The notes under the pieces: model-generated
Database searches by the model: none
Told to the model about the DNA's origin: nothing
The model's input: only the letters and a program-made list of their open reading frames with translations
Origin: a virus
IMG/VR virus record: IMGVR_UViG_3300029130_000025
Direction: 5' to 3' (one strand)
DNA: 38,375 nt
Part shown: piece by piece, positions 3,839-10,706 of the stretch
How positions within the stretch are numbered: the first letter of the stretch is position 1
Layout of the letters: every line of letters begins with the position of its first letter
Program-made: the position numbers and the translations under genes

Positions 3839-3993
3839 CGAGTGTAAAAAATCTGTGCCTGCTGCTGATCTCGCGGGGGAAAACCGATGGGCTGCAGGAC
3901 AAAATGGACGCCTATCTGGCAGCTGACCGGCTGACCGCAGAAGAGTACACGGAGCTGGCAGAAAAGCTGGCGCAAAAGGAGGAAAACGCTTGA
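3835..3993 (+). CDS. XkdX-like small protein
   Basis: 52-aa ORF, not in the track: MTSVKNLCLLLISRGKTDGLQDKMDAYLAADRLTAEEYTELAEKLAQKEENA. The ...ITAEEY...L motif and its position before the lysis cassette fit the XkdX family. Both ends overlap neighbouring genes. Confidence 0.5.
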   Translation: MTSVKNLCLLLISRGKTDGLQDKMDAYLAADRLTAEEYTELAEKLAQKEENA

Positions 3994-4229
3994 GCGACGT
4001 TTTAAGCGCGGTTATCACGGCGGTTATCACCGGCGGTGTCACTCTGGTTGGCATCCTGATTTCCAACAGCAAAAGTCAGGCGGTCACGGAGACGAAAATT
4101 GACGAGCTGACCCGTGAGGTCAGGGAACACAACAATTTCGCACGGCGCGTGCCGGTGGTTGAGGAACAAATCAGGGTGATTAACCACCGAATCAAGGATT
4201 TAGAAGATGCAGAAAAACACAACGATTAA
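3990..4229 (+). CDS. XhlA-like membrane protein (lysis-associated)
   Basis: TTG start after aggagg. N-terminal TM segment (VLSAVITAVITGGVTLVGILI) followed by a coiled coil. It lies directly upstream of the holin. Confidence 0.5.
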   Translation: MSDVLSAVITAVITGGVTLVGILISNSKSQAVTETKIDELTREVREHNNFARRVPVVEEQIRVINHRIKDLEDAEKHND

Positions 4230-4242
4230 GGAGGGCAAAATC

Positions 4243-4506
4243 ATGGATTTCGGCATTGCGGGCGTGGCGGCTATCACCGTGCTCGCCTATCTGATCGGCC
4301 AGGGGGTTAAAGCCTCCGGGCTGGCTAACAAGTGGATCCCGGTTATTTGCGGAATTACGGGTCTGGTGCTTGGCATCACAGCTCTGTACATCATGCCGGA
4401 TTTCCCGGCGGACGATCCCATTACGGCGGCGGCGATCGGGGCTGTTTCTGGTTTTGCGGCCACCGGCATTAACCAAATTGCGAAGCAGGCCAAAAAGGAG
4501 GACTGA
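4243..4506 (+). CDS. Holin
   Basis: ATG at 4243 after aaggagg. The 87-aa product has three hydrophobic segments and a charged C-terminus (KQAKKED). It lies upstream of the endolysin. Confidence 0.7.
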   Translation: MDFGIAGVAAITVLAYLIGQGVKASGLANKWIPVICGITGLVLGITALYIMPDFPADDPITAAAIGAVSGFAATGINQIAKQAKKED

Positions 4507-4509
4507 CAT

Positions 4510-4689
4510 ATGAGCTACACACCTGAGATTATGGAGTCTATCAAGGCCATGGCCTACGGCGCTACTGACAACGACCTCGTGACCAACTGCGGCATGGATG
4601 CTGCTGAGGTGGCACGCATCCGCACGGAGTATGCCGCAGACATCGAGGCCCGGAGGGCCATTTTGAAGGAGGCCGGTTATAGTGGCTAA
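4510..4689 (+). CDS. Hypothetical small protein between holin and endolysin
   Basis: 59-aa ORF MSYTPEIMESIKAMAYGATDNDL...KEAGYSG. Its end overlaps the GTG start of the endolysin. Confidence 0.4.
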   Translation: MSYTPEIMESIKAMAYGATDNDLVTNCGMDAAEVARIRTEYAADIEARRAILKEAGYSG

Positions 4690-5704
4690 AATCATCGGCA
4701 TTGATGTTTCTGAGCATAACGGTGTGGTCAATTGGTCTGCGGCAAAAAAGGCCGGTATCGGATTCGCGGTAATCCGCACCGGCTATGGCACGAGCCATGT
4801 AGATAAACAGTTCGCGGCCAATATGGCAGGAGCTGCGGCGCAGGGTATTCCCATCGGCATCTATCATTTCTCCTACGCGCTGACCGCTGCAGGGGCAAAG
4901 CAGGAAGCCGACTATGTGATCAAGCTGCTGGCGGCCTATAAAAATCAAATTACGCTACCGGTGTTTTTTGATTTTGAATATGACACTGTTGATTACGCAA
5001 AAAAGCAGGGCGTGACGCTGGGCAAGGACGCATTTAATGCCCATACCGTGGCGTTTTGTGAGCGGATCAAGGCGGCGGGGTACACCCCCGGCACATACTA
5101 CAATCTGGACTATCTCCGCAAATATGTGGACATGGATCAAGTCGGCGGGTATGTACAGTGGTATGCCCAGTATTCCAGCACGGCCAGCGCGGCGGGGCAT
5201 GACATCTGGCAGTATTCCAGCAGCTACACCATTCCGGGCTGTTCCGGCAGGTTTGACGTCAATCTACTGGAAAACACGGCGCTGCTGGGGAAAAAATACA
5301 CCCTTGGCTGGCATCAGGACAGCAAGGGGTGGTGGTATGTGGATACCGAAACTACCTATTATAAGAGCCGCTGGGCGCAGATCGGCGGCGAATGGTACTA
5401 TTTTGACGAAAAGGGGTATATGTTGATGGATACATGGAAAGTGGACAGCACCGGCACTTATTATCTGGGAGAGGACGGCAAGATGATGACGAACCGGATC
5501 GTGGGACTGGGGGCAGACGGAAAGCTCCGGCCCATGGAGCGGTATTACCATCTGCTCTCCGATCTGCCGGACTACTACCGAAAGGAGATTGACCCCTTGA
5601 TCGCCGCCGGAAAGCTCAAGGGCAAGTCCGGCAAAGGAGAAAATCTGGTGCTGGATATGCCTGAAAGCACAGTGCGAGCTATGATCATATTTAATCGAGT
5701 GTAA
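4682..5704 (+). CDS. Endolysin: GH25 muramidase plus cell-wall-binding (choline-binding-like) repeats plus a C-terminal tail
   Basis: IIGIDVSEHNGVVNW...AVIRTGYG...FFDFEYD is a GH25 signature. Aromatic repeats follow: GWWYVD..., GGEWYYFDEKGYMLMDTW, GTYYLGEDGKMMTN. Confidence 0.9.
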   Translation: MAKIIGIDVSEHNGVVNWSAAKKAGIGFAVIRTGYGTSHVDKQFAANMAGAAAQGIPIGIYHFSYALTAAGAKQEADYVIKLLAAYKNQITLPVFFDFEYDTVDYAKKQGVTLGKDAFNAHTVAFCERIKAAGYTPGTYYNLDYLRKYVDMDQVGGYVQWYAQYSSTASAAGHDIWQYSSSYTIPGCSGRFDVNLLENTALLGKKYTLGWHQDSKGWWYVDTETTYYKSRWAQIGGEWYYFDEKGYMLMDTWKVDSTGTYYLGEDGKMMTNRIVGLGADGKLRPMERYYHLLSDLPDYYRKEIDPLIAAGKLKGKSGKGENLVLDMPESTVRAMIIFNRV

Positions 5705-5716
5705 TTGGAGGTAAAA

Positions 5717-5914
5717 ATGCAGATCAAAGACTACACAAAGCCGGAATTAGATAGATTTAGAAGTTTATGTAATTTTACAGACACGGAAATGGCGTTTTTT
5801 GATCTAAGGGCAAGCGGGGCTACGCTGGATGAATGCTGCGGAGAATTGGATTATTCCATGGGTGGAATCTGCAGAATTTCCGGGAAGGTAAAAAAGAAAA
5901 TAAACAGGATTTAG
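5717..5914 (+). CDS. Small sigma-70 region-4 / LuxR-type HTH-like protein
   Basis: ATG after ggagg. FTDTEMAFFDLRASGATLDECCGELDYSMGGICRISGKVKKKI resembles a region-4 HTH. Confidence 0.4.
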   Translation: MQIKDYTKPELDRFRSLCNFTDTEMAFFDLRASGATLDECCGELDYSMGGICRISGKVKKKINRI

Positions 5915-5920
5915 GAAAAT

Positions 5921-5950
5921 AGCGCTACCGTTTGGTAGCGCTATTTTTGT
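5921..5950. terminator. Bidirectional intrinsic terminator between the convergent lysis and moron operons
   Basis: agcgctacc-gttt-ggtagcgct is followed by atttttg on + and by attttcc on the - strand. Confidence 0.8.
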
Positions 5951-5966
5951 CTGCCAGCGGATACCA

Positions 5967-6152
5967 TTATCCGCTCAGCATCGTGTGTTCCACGGCGATC
6001 CGCAGGAGGTTGATCAAGTATGGCGGAGGGTTCCGCTCACCGCCCTCCCATTTTTGCAGTGTGCGTGGATAGATTCCAAACGCTGCGGCAAATTTAACCT
6101 GAGACAGTCCGGTGCTGGCCCGGATGGATTTGATCTGTTCAGCTGGGGTCAT
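5967..6152 (-). CDS. XRE-family HTH protein, last gene of the moron operon (Aca-like / antitoxin-like autoregulator candidate)
   Basis: MTPAEQIKSIRASTGLSQVKFAAAFGIYPRTLQKWEGGERNPPPYLINLL is a classic XRE HTH. I prefer the ATG at 6152 (aggaggtg 8 nt upstream) over the GTG at 6161 used by the track. Confidence 0.75.
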   Translation of the reverse strand: MTPAEQIKSIRASTGLSQVKFAAAFGIYPRTLQKWEGGERNPPPYLINLLRIAVEHTMLSG

Positions 6153-6167
6153 TTTGCGCACCTCCTG

Positions 6168-6548
6168 TTATGCCCACATATCCGGGGCGATAATCTTACG
6201 GCCATCTTTTAACGTGTACACATAGCCTTCATATTCAAAATCGTCCAGCTGCTCTAAAAACAGCCGTGGAAGGTCTCCATCCTCATCATATATGATGTCC
6301 AAATCCGTTCCCGCTTCTCCATCCTCCAACCAGATTCGGCCGGGAATTACGGTGCGGATGTCCTTAACCGCTGCCTCGGTCACATCCTCAAACACGTCAT
6401 CGGCCTCAGGCCACGGCATTGGGAGGCCGAGTGGGCTGAGTACCGGGATTTGGTTGTCATCACAATTCCCCCAGTTAAACACGCCGACGGTGTTGCCGCT
6501 GTAAACGATGATTCCTGCCTCGTGGTTAGTTAATTCCATTAGTGTCAT
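6168..6548 (-). CDS. Hypothetical, extremely acidic 126-aa protein
   Basis: RBS aggagg lies 7 nt upstream. By my count there are 27 D/E against 7 K/R. No domain recognised. Confidence 0.7.
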   Translation of the reverse strand: MTLMELTNHEAGIIVYSGNTVGVFNWGNCDDNQIPVLSPLGLPMPWPEADDVFEDVTEAAVKDIRTVIPGRIWLEDGEAGTDLDIIYDEDGDLPRLFLEQLDDFEYEGYVYTLKDGRKIIAPDMWA

Positions 6549-6594
6549 TTTGATTTCCTCCTATTGATGGTCTACGTTTTGATGTCCTGCTATA

Positions 6595-6942
6595 TCATTT
6601 GATTACTGCAACAACGACTGCATGGCTGATAATGACCTCCTGCGGGTCGTTTCCATATCCCTCGCCCTCTCCGGCGATCAGATACATGTGTGCGCCGTCA
6701 TAGTCCTGCTGACGCGCCAGCGCCTTGCGCACCTCATCAATGTCATCCTCGTCATACCAGAGGTAGCCAAAGCCGGTAGCGCAGGTGCCTGGGAGATAGG
6801 TTTCTTCTGTGTTTTCCCAGTACAGATCACGGGAGCACCCGAGCTCGTCCCCAACATTGAGCACACGGTCATCCGTGCGGAGGCCATACACACAGTATTT
6901 GTTGTTGTTCTCGATCAGCGCATTCAAAACCAGCTCTTCCAT
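6595..6942 (-). CDS. Hypothetical, strongly acidic 115-aa protein
   Basis: RBS ggggga upstream. By my count there are 23 D/E against 8 K/R. It is the first gene behind a consensus promoter. Confidence 0.7.
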   Translation of the reverse strand: MEELVLNALIENNNKYCVYGLRTDDRVLNVGDELGCSRDLYWENTEETYLPGTCATGFGYLWYDEDDIDEVRKALARQQDYDGAHMYLIAGEGEGYGNDPQEVIISHAVVVAVIK

Positions 6943-6973
6943 TTTTGGATCCCCCTTGTTATTAACTGTCTAT

Positions 6974-7002
6974 ATTATACCGCCCAATGGGCAGTATGTC
7001 AA
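6974..7002 (-). promoter_or_regulatory. Consensus sigma-A promoter of the moron operon, with a palindrome in the spacer
   Basis: The minus strand reads TTGACA (7002..6997), a 17-nt spacer, then TATAAT (6979..6974). The spacer contains GCCCA-N-TGGGC. An A-tract-rich UP-like sequence lies upstream. Confidence 0.75.
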
Positions 7003-7038
7003 GCCTTTTTTCGAGATTTTTTGAATATTTTTTGAGCA

Positions 7039-7066: not shown

Positions 7067-7098
7067 ACGCGCTAACATTAAATCAGGAGGTGAGCAAT

Positions 7099-7473
7099 AT
7101 GGCCTATGGATATATGCCGTATGGCAATCAATATGGTGGCTATACAGGGTATGGCAACCAGTATGGCGGATACAACCAACAGCCACAGCGTACAGAGGTG
7201 ATCCACGTAAACGGCCAGAATGGAGCACAGGCGCTCCAAATGGCTCCAAATAGCAGCGCTATCGTGATGGATGATACTGCACCGCTGATTTGGCTCTGTC
7301 AGACCGACGGAGCCGGTTACAAAACGGTTAGAGCATTTGATATAGCTCCACACCAGGACGCACAGACGGCATCTGTCGGTGATTTGGAAAACCGAATTAA
7401 ACGATTGGAGGAAATTGTAAATGGTAAATCCGCTGAACCAGTTTCTGCCGCAAAGCCAAAACCGGCCAAATAA
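7099..7473 (+). CDS. Hypothetical protein with a Tyr/Gly/Gln/Asn-rich N-terminal low-complexity region
   Basis: ATG lies 8 nt after caggagg. The product starts MAYGYMPYGNQYGGYTGYGNQYGGYNQQPQ, continues as a globular region and ends in a coiled segment with a Lys/Pro/Ala tail. Confidence 0.65.
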   Translation: MAYGYMPYGNQYGGYTGYGNQYGGYNQQPQRTEVIHVNGQNGAQALQMAPNSSAIVMDDTAPLIWLCQTDGAGYKTVRAFDIAPHQDAQTASVGDLENRIKRLEEIVNGKSAEPVSAAKPKPAK

Positions 7474-7636
7474 CCCAATATCTATGATTTCCAAATTCCG
7501 CGAATTTGCAGCAGGAATGACGCCAGACAGCGCACGGAAACAGGTGGAGCAGCTACTAGCCTCTGGGCAAATGTCGCAGGAGCAATTTAATCAGCTCAAA
7601 TCGCAAGCGCAAGAATTTTCGAAATTTTTGAAATAA
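7421..7636 (+). CDS. Hypothetical small Gln-rich protein, overlapping the 3' end of the previous gene out of frame (alternative start 7484)
   Basis: ATG 7421 is preceded by ggagga at 9 nt, whereas ATG 7484 has no SD. Product: ...GMTPDSARKQVEQLLASGQMSQEQFNQLKSQAQEFSKFLK. Confidence 0.5.
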   Translation: MVNPLNQFLPQSQNRPNNPISMISKFREFAAGMTPDSARKQVEQLLASGQMSQEQFNQLKSQAQEFSKFLK

Positions 7637-7679
7637 CCCCGGTGCGCAACGGGATTATATAAATTACAAAAGGAGTGAT

Positions 7680-8318
7680 ATGATGGAAAATTATTCTCTG
7701 TCCGATCTCGCGGCTGTGACCAAGGACGCTGACGGAATGGCTGGTAACGGTGCATGGTGGATCATCATCCTGTTTCTGTTTGTCATCATGGGCGGAGGTT
7801 GGAGTGGGTTTAACCGCCAGGGAGAGTATGGACAGTACGCCACGGCGGCATCCCAGCAGGAGATCCTTTATGGACAGCAGTTTGGCCAGATCAATGACCG
7901 GCTGACAAATCTCGGCAACGGAATCTGCAACCTCGGGTATGAGATGCAGGGCAATATCGGGCAGCTCGGCAAGGAGGTCGCACTGGCGCAGGCTGGCACC
8001 AACACCACAATCATGCAGACCGGGAATGCCATCCAGTCTCAGATTGCTCAGTGCTGCTGCGAGAATCGGCTGGCCACCGCAAACCTGTCCGCACAAATTG
8101 ACCGGCAGACCTGCGACATCACTACGGCGATCCACGCCGAGGGTGAGCAGACCAGGGCACTGATGCAGGCAAACGAGATCCAGAGCCTGCGGGATAAGGT
8201 CTCTGCTCTGGAGGCTGACAACCGCATGTATGGTGTGGTTCGCTATCCCAACGGCTACACTTACACCGCCGGGCCTTCCCCGTTCTGCGGCTGCAATAGC
8301 GGCTGCGGGTGTGCATAA
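7680..8318 (+). CDS. Membrane protein with Q/N/G-rich coiled region, CCC motif and Cys-rich C-terminus
   Basis: RBS aaaggag. TM segment AWWIIILFLFVIMGGGW. It contains QCCCENRL...RQTCDIT and ends FCGCNSGCGCA. Confidence 0.7.
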   Translation: MMENYSLSDLAAVTKDADGMAGNGAWWIIILFLFVIMGGGWSGFNRQGEYGQYATAASQQEILYGQQFGQINDRLTNLGNGICNLGYEMQGNIGQLGKEVALAQAGTNTTIMQTGNAIQSQIAQCCCENRLATANLSAQIDRQTCDITTAIHAEGEQTRALMQANEIQSLRDKVSALEADNRMYGVVRYPNGYTYTAGPSPFCGCNSGCGCA

Positions 8319-8349
8319 CAACGTTCAAAAACCGCTCTAACAGCGATAA

Positions 8350-8373
8350 GCCCGGGGCGGATTTGCCCCGGGC
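8350..8373 (+). terminator. Stem-loop (weak terminator or processing site) inside the accessory operon
   Basis: gcccgggg-cggatttg-ccccgggc is followed by atttctg. Confidence 0.4.
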
Positions 8374-8393
8374 ATTTCTGAAAGGAGAACAAT

Positions 8394-8834
8394 ATGAGCT
8401 GCAACAGAAATCTTAAAAATCCCCACTATAAGAGCGCCCAGAACGCTTATAACGACGCATCACAGGCGTTTGTTGCCACCGGCACCCCCGTATCCGTGCT
8501 GGGCGTGCTCAACACTGATACCGGATGCTCTGTGGATACAGTCACAGGGGGCTTCCGGATCAACGCCTCTGGACTTTACCGCGTATCCTATGACGTGACC
8601 TTCACACCGTCAGCTGCTGGCGTGGCGGTGCTCCAGGGACTCAAGGACACGGCAACGCTCCCTTGCCTCAATGCGCAGGAAACGGTAGCCGCTGGCTCTG
8701 TGTACACGCTCCACGCAGAGACTACAATATATGTCCCAGTGTGCTGCAATGGCGCTCCAACAATCAGCGCGACGCTCGGCGGTGTAGCAGGCACGGTTTC
8801 CCATGTATGCGCAAGCGCCGTAAAGCTGGCGTGA
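8394..8834 (+). CDS. BclA C-terminal / C1q-TNF-like jelly-roll domain protein without a collagen stalk
   Basis: RBS aaaggag. FRINASGLYRVSYDVTF...VYTLHAETTIYV...SAVKLA resembles, from memory, the BclA C-terminal domain (FVISETGFYKITV...SIIIEKVA). Confidence 0.55.
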   Translation: MSCNRNLKNPHYKSAQNAYNDASQAFVATGTPVSVLGVLNTDTGCSVDTVTGGFRINASGLYRVSYDVTFTPSAAGVAVLQGLKDTATLPCLNAQETVAAGSVYTLHAETTIYVPVCCNGAPTISATLGGVAGTVSHVCASAVKLA

Positions 8835-8844
8835 GGTGATCGCC

Positions 8845-9321
8845 ATGAAATCCAAATTGAGCGAGTATAAATCCAAGTTGGAGCACGAATTGGCGGAATA
8901 CCTCGATCAGCCAATCGGGACTAGATCCATGGCCGCCGTTGATGCTATGATTGAGTGCTGGGAACACGTTAATGACATGGAACATTGTGTATGCCATAGT
9001 GAGAAGCTGGACGATCAAGCATTGGAGACATGGAATGCCAACATGAAAAACGATGATGGTAGCACCGGTGGACATTGGACAGTAGCCCAGACCACCGACG
9101 CGGCAAAAACCGCAGGGGTAGTAATGGAGCACATTACACCGAATGGATGGAATGCCGCCATGAATATGATGTACTCGGACTATTGCAGCGTGGCAACAAA
9201 GCACGGATGCAACAAGGTAGAGTTTTACGCCGACCTCGCAAAGGCGTTTTTGTTTGACAAGGACGGCCCGGGGCCGGAAGCCAAACTGGCAGCATACTAT
9301 CATGGGATTGTCGTGGGATAA
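8845..9321 (+). CDS. Conserved hypothetical phage protein
   Basis: ATG 8845 lies 6 nt after gaggtg (the track uses GTG 8836). Motifs NMKNDDGSTGGHWTVAQT and MNMMYSDY. No function recognised. Confidence 0.6.
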   Translation: MKSKLSEYKSKLEHELAEYLDQPIGTRSMAAVDAMIECWEHVNDMEHCVCHSEKLDDQALETWNANMKNDDGSTGGHWTVAQTTDAAKTAGVVMEHITPNGWNAAMNMMYSDYCSVATKHGCNKVEFYADLAKAFLFDKDGPGPEAKLAAYYHGIVVG

Positions 9322-9599: not shown

Positions 9600-10706
9600 C
9601 TACTCAGACGTTGCCGCCATCTGATTTACGGCGGCATGAGAAGCGGCGGTATCTGGATGGATATAGCGCTGTGTCGTTGTAAATTTGGTGTGGCGCATAA
9701 CCTCCTGAATTACGGACGGTGCAATATTGCCCAGAGCCAGCGCAGTTGCGGTGGTGTGGCGGCAGGAGTACGGCGGGAGGTCTCTGCATCCGGCATTTTT
9801 TACAGCTCTATGATATTCCAGATAGAACTTGTCACGATCCATGCAGAGGACGTAATCTTTCCGGCTCTTTGAGTAATCGCAGAGTTCGTGGAGCACGGGA
9901 GCGACGGACTGTGGAAATACCATGACCGTTTCCTTCCGCTTTCTGGTTTTGAGGCCAGCCCCCCGAATTTCACACTTGTTAAAATCTATCATATCCTTTT
10001 TCAGGATGAATAGTTCCCCCGGCATCATGCCCGTGTAGATCATCAGCAGGATGTAGCCCACAAACGTATCACCGGCGGTGTATGCCGCCCAGAATAGTTT
10101 AATCTCGTCCTCGGTGTACGGGGTCATCTCTTTTTCATCCAGCGGCGGTAGCTCAATATATTCCGCCAGATTTGCCCGGAGATGGCCCTCTGCAACGGCC
10201 ATTTTCAGGAGGTGGGACGCTACGGTTTTCATATCCCGTGCGGGGTAGTATGTGGAGGTCTCAGTGTCCACCTGTCCCTGCAAATCTCCAATGGATAGCT
10301 CGGTTATGGGTTTGTCGTATAGGCCCTCCCAACGCTTCCAAGCGATCTCATAGGCCGTTTGCTTAGATTTTCCAAGCTTGGTAAATGCAGATGAGTGCCA
10401 TGTTTTATGGTACTCGCGGAGTGTAGGCACTTTTACGACAGTTTCCGGAGGGCATGACGCATAGGCCAGCGCGGCCTTTTTTGTGGCAAATCCGCCCTTC
10501 CATTTCCGGGGATAATGGACTTTACCATCATCACCGATATAGCGCGGGGCAGACCATACGGCTGTCCACGTTTTCCCTCGCTTGATGGCCGTCCCCTGTC
10601 CGTTTCCACGGCTTTTTACGCTTGTGGTTACAGTTAATTTAGCCCCGCACTTTGGGCAGAAATTAGCCCCCTCCGGTGCCTCTGAATGGCATTTCCTGCA
10701 TTGCAT
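9600..10706 (-). CDS. int: Tyrosine integrase with an N-terminal zinc-ribbon
   Basis: MQCRKCHSEAPEGANFCPKCGAKL is a CxxC...CxxC ribbon. The C-terminus has ...YSCRHTTATALAL...VMRHTKFTTTQRYIH (R..H..R..Y catalytic pattern). It is adjacent to attP. Confidence 0.9.
   Translation of the reverse strand: MQCRKCHSEAPEGANFCPKCGAKLTVTTSVKSRGNGQGTAIKRGKTWTAVWSAPRYIGDDGKVHYPRKWKGGFATKKAALAYASCPPETVVKVPTLREYHKTWHSSAFTKLGKSKQTAYEIAWKRWEGLYDKPITELSIGDLQGQVDTETSTYYPARDMKTVASHLLKMAVAEGHLRANLAEYIELPPLDEKEMTPYTEDEIKLFWAAYTAGDTFVGYILLMIYTGMMPGELFILKKDMIDFNKCEIRGAGLKTRKRKETVMVFPQSVAPVLHELCDYSKSRKDYVLCMDRDKFYLEYHRAVKNAGCRDLPPYSCRHTTATALALGNIAPSVIQEVMRHTKFTTTQRYIHPDTAASHAAVNQMAATSE

Follow-up and report, generated by a model that had tools for sequence, protein, structure and literature searches.

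What does the small three-gene cassette carried on the minus strand of the virus IMGVR_UViG_3300029130_000025, between its lysis genes and its integrase, do for the phage that keeps it? The window analysed here is the whole IMG/VR record of 38,375 nucleotides, an apparently complete temperate phage of ~38 kb with tail genes, a terminase, a portal and a tape-measure gene. An earlier note, drawn from the letters alone, had taken the cassette for a candidate anti-defence operon of the anti-CRISPR (Acr) and anti-CRISPR-associated (Aca) kind, in which two very acidic proteins (genes g1 and g2) would mimic DNA to disarm host immunity and a helix-turn-helix (HTH) protein (g3) would regulate them. Following up this proposal, we consider it fairly probable that the cassette is an Aca10-type anti-defence operon in which g3 closes the promoter while g1 and g2 inhibit a component of host defence. 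The parts of this reading stand at different strengths: comparisons of related loci make the regulatory part, an Aca10-like switch, highly probable, and the chance that at least one of g1 and g2 is an immune inhibitor, a candidate function argued from association, lies at the midpoint or slightly above it.

The control region bears most directly on this question. The cassette promoter (coordinates of all features are given in Table 1) matches the sigma-70 consensus TTGACA-17-TATAAT at 12 of 12 positions, as the earlier note had read it, is the sole such match in the 38-kb window (0.007 expected from base composition) and is conserved among sister phages. The A-tracts mentioned upstream of it proved to be three phased A6 runs spaced exactly 11 nt, which resemble curved DNA or an UP element and may function as such. 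The palindrome GCCCA-T-TGGGC described in the promoter spacer is also present, and is longer than first noted: the inverted repeat TACTGCCCA-T-TGGGCGGTA, of 9+1+9 bp, fills the spacer and runs into the -10 hexamer, with complementary bases at 8 of the 9 arm positions (chance at a fixed site ~1e-4), and no further copy above chance was found in the window. The operator of Aca10, validated by electrophoretic mobility shift assay, is likewise a 9+1+9 palindrome within the promoter, ATACGCTCA-T-TGAGCGTAT, with a minimal site published as ATACGCTCATTGAGCGTAT (PMC9410881). Both sites share layout and promoter position and agree at 5 of 6 inner bases per half-site, CGC(T/C)CA, so that the sequence comparison supports the spacer palindrome as an Aca10-type (IR2-type) operator. 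In a full-text search of the literature, the operator core strings GCCCAATGGGC and GCCCATTGGGC led to unrelated papers only.

The last gene of the cassette encodes the putative partner of this operator. Its product, read in the earlier note as a 61-aa HTH protein of the XRE type, indeed matches Pfam HTH_3 (E 4.6e-6, 27 bits, cut-off 23), and its ATG start stands behind an AGGAGG ribosome-binding site, within which the alternative GTG start (64 aa) falls. The best sequence matches of g3 among solved structures are HigA-2 (E 3e-4) and Aca10 (PDB 7XI5), the latter found by phmmer at E 6e-4 over 49 residues with ~33-35% identity. Aca10 is the repressor of the acrIC7-acrIC6-aca10 operon of Pseudomonas citronellolis, and contacts DNA through Q22, R34, Q37, Q38 and R44, the last being critical (PMC9410881). 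Four of these five residues are kept in g3 (Q22 as Q18, R34 as R30, Q37 as Q33 and R44 as R40), the fifth, Q38, being K34. We consider g3 a probable distant relative of Aca10, predicted to act as an Aca10-like autorepressor by binding the operator at 6996-6978 and repressing its own promoter. In PADLOC, g3 yielded generic HTH matches only. Membership in Aca2 was rejected, as g3 has no Aca2_YdiL Pfam match and the Aca2 operator core is TTCG-N6-CGAA.

This pairing of operator and regulator recurs well beyond the window. Scans of three public collections for the pattern TTGACA-N4-GCCCA-N-TGGGC, with or without a -10-like hexamer, recovered 45 distinct promoter instances with the core at the same promoter position; about 6 of them have poorly paired arms and apparently arose by chance, the others being full promoters with a spacer palindrome. 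They lie on unrelated contigs, including metagenome-assembled genomes of Oscillospiraceae, Clostridiales, Rhodocyclales and Rhizobium, and the promoter/operator design is repeated in ~40 unrelated metagenomic loci across Firmicutes and Proteobacteria with differing small cargo. Where at least 7 of 9 arm positions are paired and the contig continues, an HTH gene resembling g3 or Aca10 lies downstream on the same strand in 20 of ~26 instances, usually behind one or two unrelated small genes, and most instances without a downstream HTH are second promoters located at most 2 kb from such a gene. The check suggested at the outset, namely a search of relatives for the same HTH beside variable small genes, was therefore clearly positive, both in sister phages and in these ~40 unrelated loci.

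The operators and their regulators also appear to vary together. From one locus to another, the bases next to GCCCA and its mirror copy change in a matched way (C:G, G:C or T:A): sites of the form C-GCCCA pair with recognition helices reading WQ(H/K)WE or LQKWE, and sites of the form G-GCCCA with RKYxGGE helices in 5 of 5 cases. Operator class tracks HTH class, and this covariation, with the conserved pairing, gives comparative support to the predicted binding and repression by g3. At the proteobacterial end of this range, the HTH proteins are clear Aca10 homologues (E 1.7e-12 against 7XI5 for that of locus L085) and the promoters nearly that of Aca10 itself, the L043 operator ATACGCCCA-T-TGGGCGTAT being one base per half-site off the Aca10 site. 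A 2026 survey independently reported covariation in the Aca10 DNA motif, an RNA motif in the 5' untranslated region (5' UTR) of aca10 operons, and the regulation of neighbouring anti-defence operons by Aca proteins (PMC13551039).

Seven of the proteobacterial Aca10-type promoters (L044, L047, L048, L058, L082, L099 and L104) are followed by a conserved 5' UTR segment, CCGCGCCTCGGGGAT(T)CAGGGGCTGGAG, located ~30-60 nt past the -10 hexamer, in which a short GC hairpin is possible just ahead of the ribosome-binding site. This segment has no match in Rfam and probably corresponds to the Aca10-associated RNA motif of that survey (PMC13551039); the 5' UTR of the window does not contain it. Neither the window cassette nor any of five related loci had an Rfam match either. 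A ParB-N-like reading of the cargo of L048 and L057 was dropped, as Pfam gave no confirmation.

If the regulator is Aca10-like, what does it regulate? Sister phages provide an association. They share the endolysin, the 69-aa open reading frame (ORF) and the downstream accessory genes of the window, and their cassettes vary in cargo under the same promoter and operator. Its first operon, g1 - g2 - HTH in the window, reads g1 - 96/97-aa gene - HTH - HNH-like gene (223 aa, truncated in L011) in L010 and L011, and keeps this order in L108 (96-aa gene, truncated HNH-like gene) and L079 (97-aa gene). The window has no second promoter/operator, but L108 has one ahead of a 117-aa gene, and L079 has one ahead of a 65-aa gene followed by a 59-aa HTH gene. 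L033 and L074 combine a 64-aa gene, g2, the HTH and the HNH-like gene with a second promoter/operator ahead of a 107-aa gene, and a 3' remnant of g1 is left between their 64-aa gene and g2. The first operon consists of a 205-aa gene and a fused HTH-g2 protein in L115, and of a 270-aa gene and a 173-aa HTH fusion in L055, no second promoter/operator being seen in either. Altogether, seven further cargo genes replace or adjoin g1 and g2 in the sister phages, which brings the repertoire to at least nine, and none of these additional genes, nor any known acr gene, was found elsewhere in the window.

One of these cargo genes belongs to a validated family. The acidic inhibitor AcrIC5 keeps the type I-C Cascade from binding DNA. 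The 65-aa protein of L079 is a full-length match to Pfam AcrIC5 (PF22147; E 3.2e-18, 66 bits, cut-off 27), encoded behind a promoter/operator of the same type and adjoining a paralogue of g3. Orthologues of AcrIC5 are known in Firmicutes and Actinobacteria, and a homologue from a Bifidobacterium prophage is active (PMC7913775, PMC10651486).

The window itself bears traces of exchange at this site. A three-way DNA alignment identified g3 as a chimera of the two paralogous HTH genes of L079: its first ~150 nt track HTH1 with three mismatches (93.6% identity across the whole gene), and its last ~35 nt (from ~6000), together with ~60 nt downstream including the terminator, are identical to HTH2, which lies behind acrIC5. 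The alignment of window positions 5967-6012 with L079 positions 930-1180 and 2185-2470 places the crossover within the shared stretch CTCCTGCGGATCGCCGT. By this evidence the window resembles the product of a deletion between the two HTH paralogues, which would have removed the HNH-like gene, the second promoter/operator and the acrIC5 homologue. More generally, the locus is a hot spot of recombination, flanked by the lysis genes and by the accessory genes near the integrase, at which payloads are exchanged.

The HNH-like protein encoded behind the HTH gene (L010 4884-5555, L074 2092-2763, L079 ~1110-1830), absent from the window, is basic, 223-239 aa long, and contains the motif GQRYGRLT...WxCxCDCG in repeated copies. 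Among PHROGs it matches those of HNH endonucleases (phrog_374, E 2e-45), and neither a Pfam AP2 nor a Pfam HNH model matched its 223-aa form. It may be a homing-endonuclease-like gene aiding cassette turnover; AP2/HNH-type genes have been reported to be frequent in acr loci (PMC10732046).

The two cargo proteins retained in the window stand apart from its other products by their charge. The residue counts of the earlier note are exact: g1 has 23 D/E against 8 K/R (isoelectric point (pI) 4.15, net charge -15) and g2 has 27 against 7 (pI 4.05, net charge -20), that is -13 and -16 per 100 aa, where the other proteins of the window range from -7 to +3.5. Its statement that they have no recognisable domain also held, as Pfam, NCBIfam, PADLOC and PHROGs gave no functional match for either protein; g1 matches phrog_18666, a PHROG without annotated function, and g2 none. 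No membrane segment was predicted in either, and blastn and tblastn searches with both genes against GenBank phages and PLSDB plasmids were without match.

The family of g1 comprises at least 147 clusters at 90% identity, made of single-domain proteins of ~105-135 aa which are all named "hypothetical protein" and carry no Pfam domain. Its members are consistently acidic (n=118, with a median net charge of -16) and come from gut-metagenome phages, Flavonifractor plautii genomes and a relaxase-bearing element. The latter, a plasmid-like or integrative and conjugative element-like contig (L003/L004), encodes a 135-aa homologue at 4052-4459 adjoining a divergent HTH_26 gene, near relaxase and NikA genes, and also carries ParA, a resolvase and an ArdC-N/YodL polyvalent protein; the placement of the homologue fits the leading region of a conjugative element. 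An abundant subfamily (P0058; L109-L114, in Flavonifractor-type phages) heads a cassette of different composition, as in L109 3900-5012, where a g1-like gene (107 aa) is followed by an HTH_3 gene (93 aa) and a Zn-ribbon protein (136 aa). The promoter of this cassette is again a perfect TTGACA-17-TATAAT, with the palindrome GCTAATATTAGC both upstream of the promoter and in the spacer. With g1 standing behind two sets of promoter, palindrome and HTH, at least two regulator/operator systems thus control this one cargo family, and it is common in Acr families that one cargo family is served by differing regulators. The P0058 cassette is inserted beside Bro-N/ANT genes, and the phages that host it carry differing terminases.

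The g2 family is larger, with 246 representatives at 50% identity that are mostly standalone proteins of 110-150 aa (median net charge -19, n=29), and g2 is found without g1 or g3 in several unrelated phage contexts. Part of its members are fused to DNA-binding domains. Three representatives (P0026, P0216 and P0226) carry a g3-like HTH at the N-terminus or within an N-terminal extension, P0196 carries one at the C-terminus, matching the gene order of the window, and fusions to a ribbon-helix-helix (RHH) domain are seen in P0241, above the Pfam cut-off, and more weakly in P0255, P0256, P0314 and a 240-aa protein of L034. By analogy, these fusions mirror the layout of self-regulating Acr-Aca fusions such as AcrIIA1 and AcrIF24 (cited in PMC9410881). 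The L034 locus (3965-5914) encodes a g1-like gene, a 136-aa gene, the 240-aa protein, whose N-terminus is weakly RHH (NikA-like) and whose C-terminus resembles g2, and an HNH endonuclease with a significant Pfam match, so that g1 and g2 co-occur again in an unrelated, GC-rich phage.

Predicted structures did not bring the two proteins closer to a described inhibitor. Both AlphaFold models are of good quality, that of g1 (pLDDT 82.6) being mixed alpha/beta and that of g2 (pLDDT 96.9) beta-rich. Foldseek searches of the PDB returned nothing significant for g1 (best E 0.12) or g2 (best E 1.2), a PDB sequence-profile search returned nothing below E 0.1 for either, and the g2 model retrieved an uncharacterised homologue only from BFVD. 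The top fold match of g1 by probability, a weak one, was the ADP-ribosyltransferase Arr-2 (probability 0.51, TM-score 0.40, E 0.15). Neither model resembles Ocr, ArdA, AcrIIA4, AcrF2 or any solved structure, and Ocr-, ArdA- or Acr-like folds were accordingly rejected for g1 and g2. Of the original proposal, the anti-defence (acr-aca) reading is thus supported by the operator, the HTH, the swapping of cargo and the AcrIC5 neighbour, and its DNA-mimic component found no structural backing.

The three genes of the cassette lie convergently to a holin, an endolysin and the 69-aa ORF on the opposing strand, as first described, and are separated by gaps of 46 nt (g1-g2) and 15 nt (g2-g3), with one promoter and one terminator for all three. 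The bidirectional terminator reported in the earlier note is a perfect 14-bp hairpin with a 4-nt loop, flanked by an A-run and a T-run, with a fold energy of -21.6 kcal/mol (z = -4.5 vs shuffles).

Table 1. Positions in the window of the cassette, its control elements and the neighbouring genes.
Feature	Position	Strand	Description
Hol44-type holin	4207-4506		convergent with the cassette
GH25 endolysin	4682-5704		with choline-binding repeats; convergent with the cassette
69-aa ORF	5705-5914	+	starts at the endolysin stop codon; convergent with the cassette, with which it shares the terminator
Bidirectional intrinsic terminator	5916-5947	both	inverted repeat 5916-5929 / 5934-5947; shared with the 69-aa ORF and the lysis genes
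g3	6152-5967	-	61-aa XRE-type HTH, last gene
g2	6548-6168	-	126 aa, second cargo gene
g1	6942-6595	-	115 aa, first cargo gene
Sigma-70 consensus promoter	7002-6974	-	-35 TTGACA 7002-6997; 17-nt spacer 6996-6980; -10 TATAAT 6979-6974
Operator palindrome	6996-6978		9+1+9 bp; fills the spacer, runs into the -10
Three A6 tracts	7006-7033	-	starts 7033, 7022, 7011; 11-nt period; upstream of the -35
Accessory gene block	7090-9321	+	between the cassette and the integrase
Tyrosine integrase	9600-10706	-	N-terminal zinc-ribbon domain

The neighbourhood holds a few further features. The 69-aa ORF, kept in all sister phages, has no Pfam or PHROG match, and the zinc-ribbon domain of the integrase was assigned to Zn_Ribbon_1 (E 2.7e-7). 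The accessory block on the other side of the cassette, kept in the relatives L001, L002 and L115, encodes a 127-aa protein whose N-terminus is rich in Y/G/N/Q, one of 71 aa, a 212-aa protein whose C-terminus is Cys-rich, a 146-aa protein weakly matched to BclA_C (E 9e-5, under the cut-off) and a DUF7841 protein of 161 aa (E 1e-20); these might be surface or spore-associated proteins.

Set beside described systems, the cassette comes close to acrIC7-acrIC6-aca10 of Pseudomonas citronellolis (PMC9410881, PMC7913775). Both place an HTH gene of ~60-65 aa last in the operon, behind small cargo genes and a strong sigma-70-like promoter with a single 9+1+9 palindrome reaching the -10, and both share the operator core CGC(T/C)CA-N-TG(A/G)GCG and the equivalents of Q22, R34, Q37 and R44. 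They differ in the ~33-35% identity of g3 to Aca10 and its tyrosine in place of the dimerisation residue G49, in the three outer bases of each half-site, in the spacer (17 nt in the window vs 16), and in the host, as the window is a phage of Firmicutes (Oscillospiraceae-type) whose cargo is unrelated to AcrIC6 and AcrIC7. The conserved leader hairpin of the proteobacterial Aca10 loci also has no counterpart in the window 5' UTR. The cargo proteins resemble AcrIC5 in being small and strongly acidic, and a homologue of the latter sits at the same hot spot in L079, but they do not match PF22147, are about twice its size, and the window has no acrIC5. Likewise, some relatives of the g2 domain are fused to HTH or RHH domains as in AcrIIA1, AcrIIA13-15 and AcrIF24, whereas g2 and g3 are separate genes in the window and bear no resemblance, in sequence or in fold, to any of these proteins. 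Ocr and ArdA are of comparable size (~115-165 aa) and very low pI, yet the PDB offered no fold match for g1 or g2, g2 being beta-rich and g1 mixed alpha/beta, and conserved non-acidic motifs are present. As for the setting, acrIIA loci of Listeria prophages adjoin the lysis module, and the window cassette similarly lies beside the lysis module of a temperate Firmicutes phage.

Taken together, these observations suggest the following sequence of events. When phage DNA enters the cell, the consensus promoter would fire strongly, with the phased A-tracts probably helping, and a single transcript ending at the hairpin (5947-5916) would yield g1, g2 and g3. As g3 builds up, presumably as a dimer, it would bind the 19-bp palindrome across the -35/-10 spacer and the -10 hexamer, block RNA polymerase and bring the operon down to a low level, also in the lysogen. 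The payload would consist of g1 and g2, small, strongly acidic and structured proteins which most likely bind and block a component of host immunity, candidate targets being a CRISPR-Cas complex, for instance of type I-C, or a defence protein that binds nucleic acids, of a restriction system or another kind.

Several points weigh against this interpretation. On the regulatory side, the similarity of g3 to Aca10 is weak when taken alone, its E-value of 6e-4 being level with that of the antitoxin HigA-2, and the higher score of the profile comparison (hhalign, Firmicutes g3 group against Aca10 group: 98.4% probability, E 9e-15) discriminates poorly, because XRE-type HTH families cross-match easily and generally score high. 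The dimer-interface residue G49 of Aca10 is Y45 in g3, and the mutation G49Y abolishes dimerisation of Aca10 (PMC9410881), so that any g3 dimer must use a differing interface. Aca-type regulators have also been reported to control genes that do not encode inhibitors (PMC13551039). On the cargo side, no homology ties g1 or g2 to the inhibition of any defence system, neither model resembles a solved Acr or DNA mimic, and no known acr gene lies within the window. Across its distant members, the g1 family has about ten invariant or near-invariant residues (G20, S37, G52, Y96, G97, D99, E102, R22, G31 and G91), which suggest a dedicated active or binding site more than loose charge mimicry, and the Zn-ribbon or HNH-like proteins frequently linked to g1 could indicate another function.

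Could the same switch then serve a different purpose? A set of accessory genes benefiting the lysogen (a moron), providing superinfection exclusion, defence or another host-modulating function at a level set by the HTH, would suit the position of the cassette between lysis genes and integrase, in contact with other accessory genes and with its own promoter and terminator; that published Aca-regulated operons include restriction-modification systems, helicases and DNA-modification genes (PMC13551039), and that g1 is so often linked with Zn-ribbon or HNH-like proteins, would also be in line with it. We regard this explanation as unlikely given that neither g1 nor g2 has a PADLOC match, which equally leaves the defence module entertained as an alternative by the earlier note without support, nor a membrane segment, Pfam or NCBIfam domain, that an AcrIC5 homologue occupies the same slot in a sister phage, and that small acidic single-domain proteins and fusions to autorepressors are typical of inhibitors. 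The conserved polar residues of g1 (S37, Y96, D99, E102 and R22) and its weak fold match to Arr-2 raise another scenario, in which g1 is a small enzyme, or g1 and g2 act on a non-immune host process during takeover of transcription, replication or metabolism, under a generic controller of early bursts. The lack of resemblance of either protein to known anti-defence proteins is compatible with such a role, but a TM-score of 0.40 with an E-value of 0.15 is no meaningful match, and the patchy distribution of these genes, their free swapping and their presence both in phages and on an element of conjugative type are better explained by an arms-race payload than by a core takeover function, which makes this scenario, in our view, quite doubtful.

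A type II toxin-antitoxin or abortive-infection module was also considered, with g3 as an MqsA/HigA2-like antitoxin and g2, or g1, as the toxin. The higBA and mqsRA operons have a toxin-first gene order, toxin-antitoxin operons are also autoregulated at promoter palindromes, and the window has a higBA-like succession of an upstream gene and then the HTH. In addition, g3 is of the same HTH subtype as MqsA and HigA-2, with a W-E-x-G-x-R motif after the recognition helix, and its best family matches include HigA-2 structures and the C-terminal HTH of MqsA (TIGR03830, E 4.7e-11, 42.6 bits vs a cut-off of 61.8; Pfam MqsA_antitoxin, E 9e-5, 23 bits vs a cut-off of 30). These MqsA/HigA matches all fall below the curated cut-offs, though, and cover the HTH only. 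At 61 aa and consisting of the HTH alone, g3 has no room for the N-terminal toxin-binding domain of these antitoxins, nor does it have a toxin partner. Its neighbours are interchangeable, HTHs 93-97% identical standing beside g2 in the window and beside the unrelated 96/97-aa protein in L011 and L079, and g2 occurs alone in other phages. Finally, the strongly acidic g1 and g2 gave no match to any toxin family when compared with Pfam, NCBIfam and PADLOC. With an HTH-only regulator, interchangeable neighbours, acidic cargo and no toxin signature, this explanation is very improbable and was rejected. We thus retain the Aca10-type anti-defence operon as the preferred reading of the cassette.

What this means for phage biology depends on the part considered. 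The acr-aca kind of system is already known and its Aca10 regulator/operator type is characterised; what appears to be new is the occurrence of an Aca10-like module in Oscillospiraceae-type phages, at a hot spot that also holds AcrIC5, together with two uncharacterised cargo families. Validated Acr and Aca families come mostly from Pseudomonas, Listeria, Streptococcus and enterobacteria, and, to our knowledge, the phages of gut Firmicutes are sparsely mapped for anti-defence genes. Here, an Aca10-like regulator/operator pair can be recognised from a DNA pattern alone across phyla, a payload-exchange hot spot beside the lysis genes is now defined, and two abundant, structured and very acidic protein families without known relatives become direct candidates for testing. 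A more ambitious reading, which we judge evenly balanced, is that g1 and g2 are founding members of two new inhibitor families of unseen fold, blocking a host defence in the form of type I-C CRISPR-Cas, restriction or another system that senses nucleic acids, that both families occur widely in Oscillospiraceae of the human gut, on phages and conjugative elements, with g2 repeatedly fused to HTH or RHH autorepressors, and that the Aca10-type promoter/operator provides a search handle across phyla. If this were true, that promoter/operator, spanning Proteobacteria to Firmicutes, would offer a cross-phylum means of finding anti-defence genes, and should g1 or g2 inhibit CRISPR-Cas or restriction, it would represent a new inhibitor fold and a possible control tool in gut anaerobes. 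If neither does, the locus would still illustrate the spread of the Aca10 control module.

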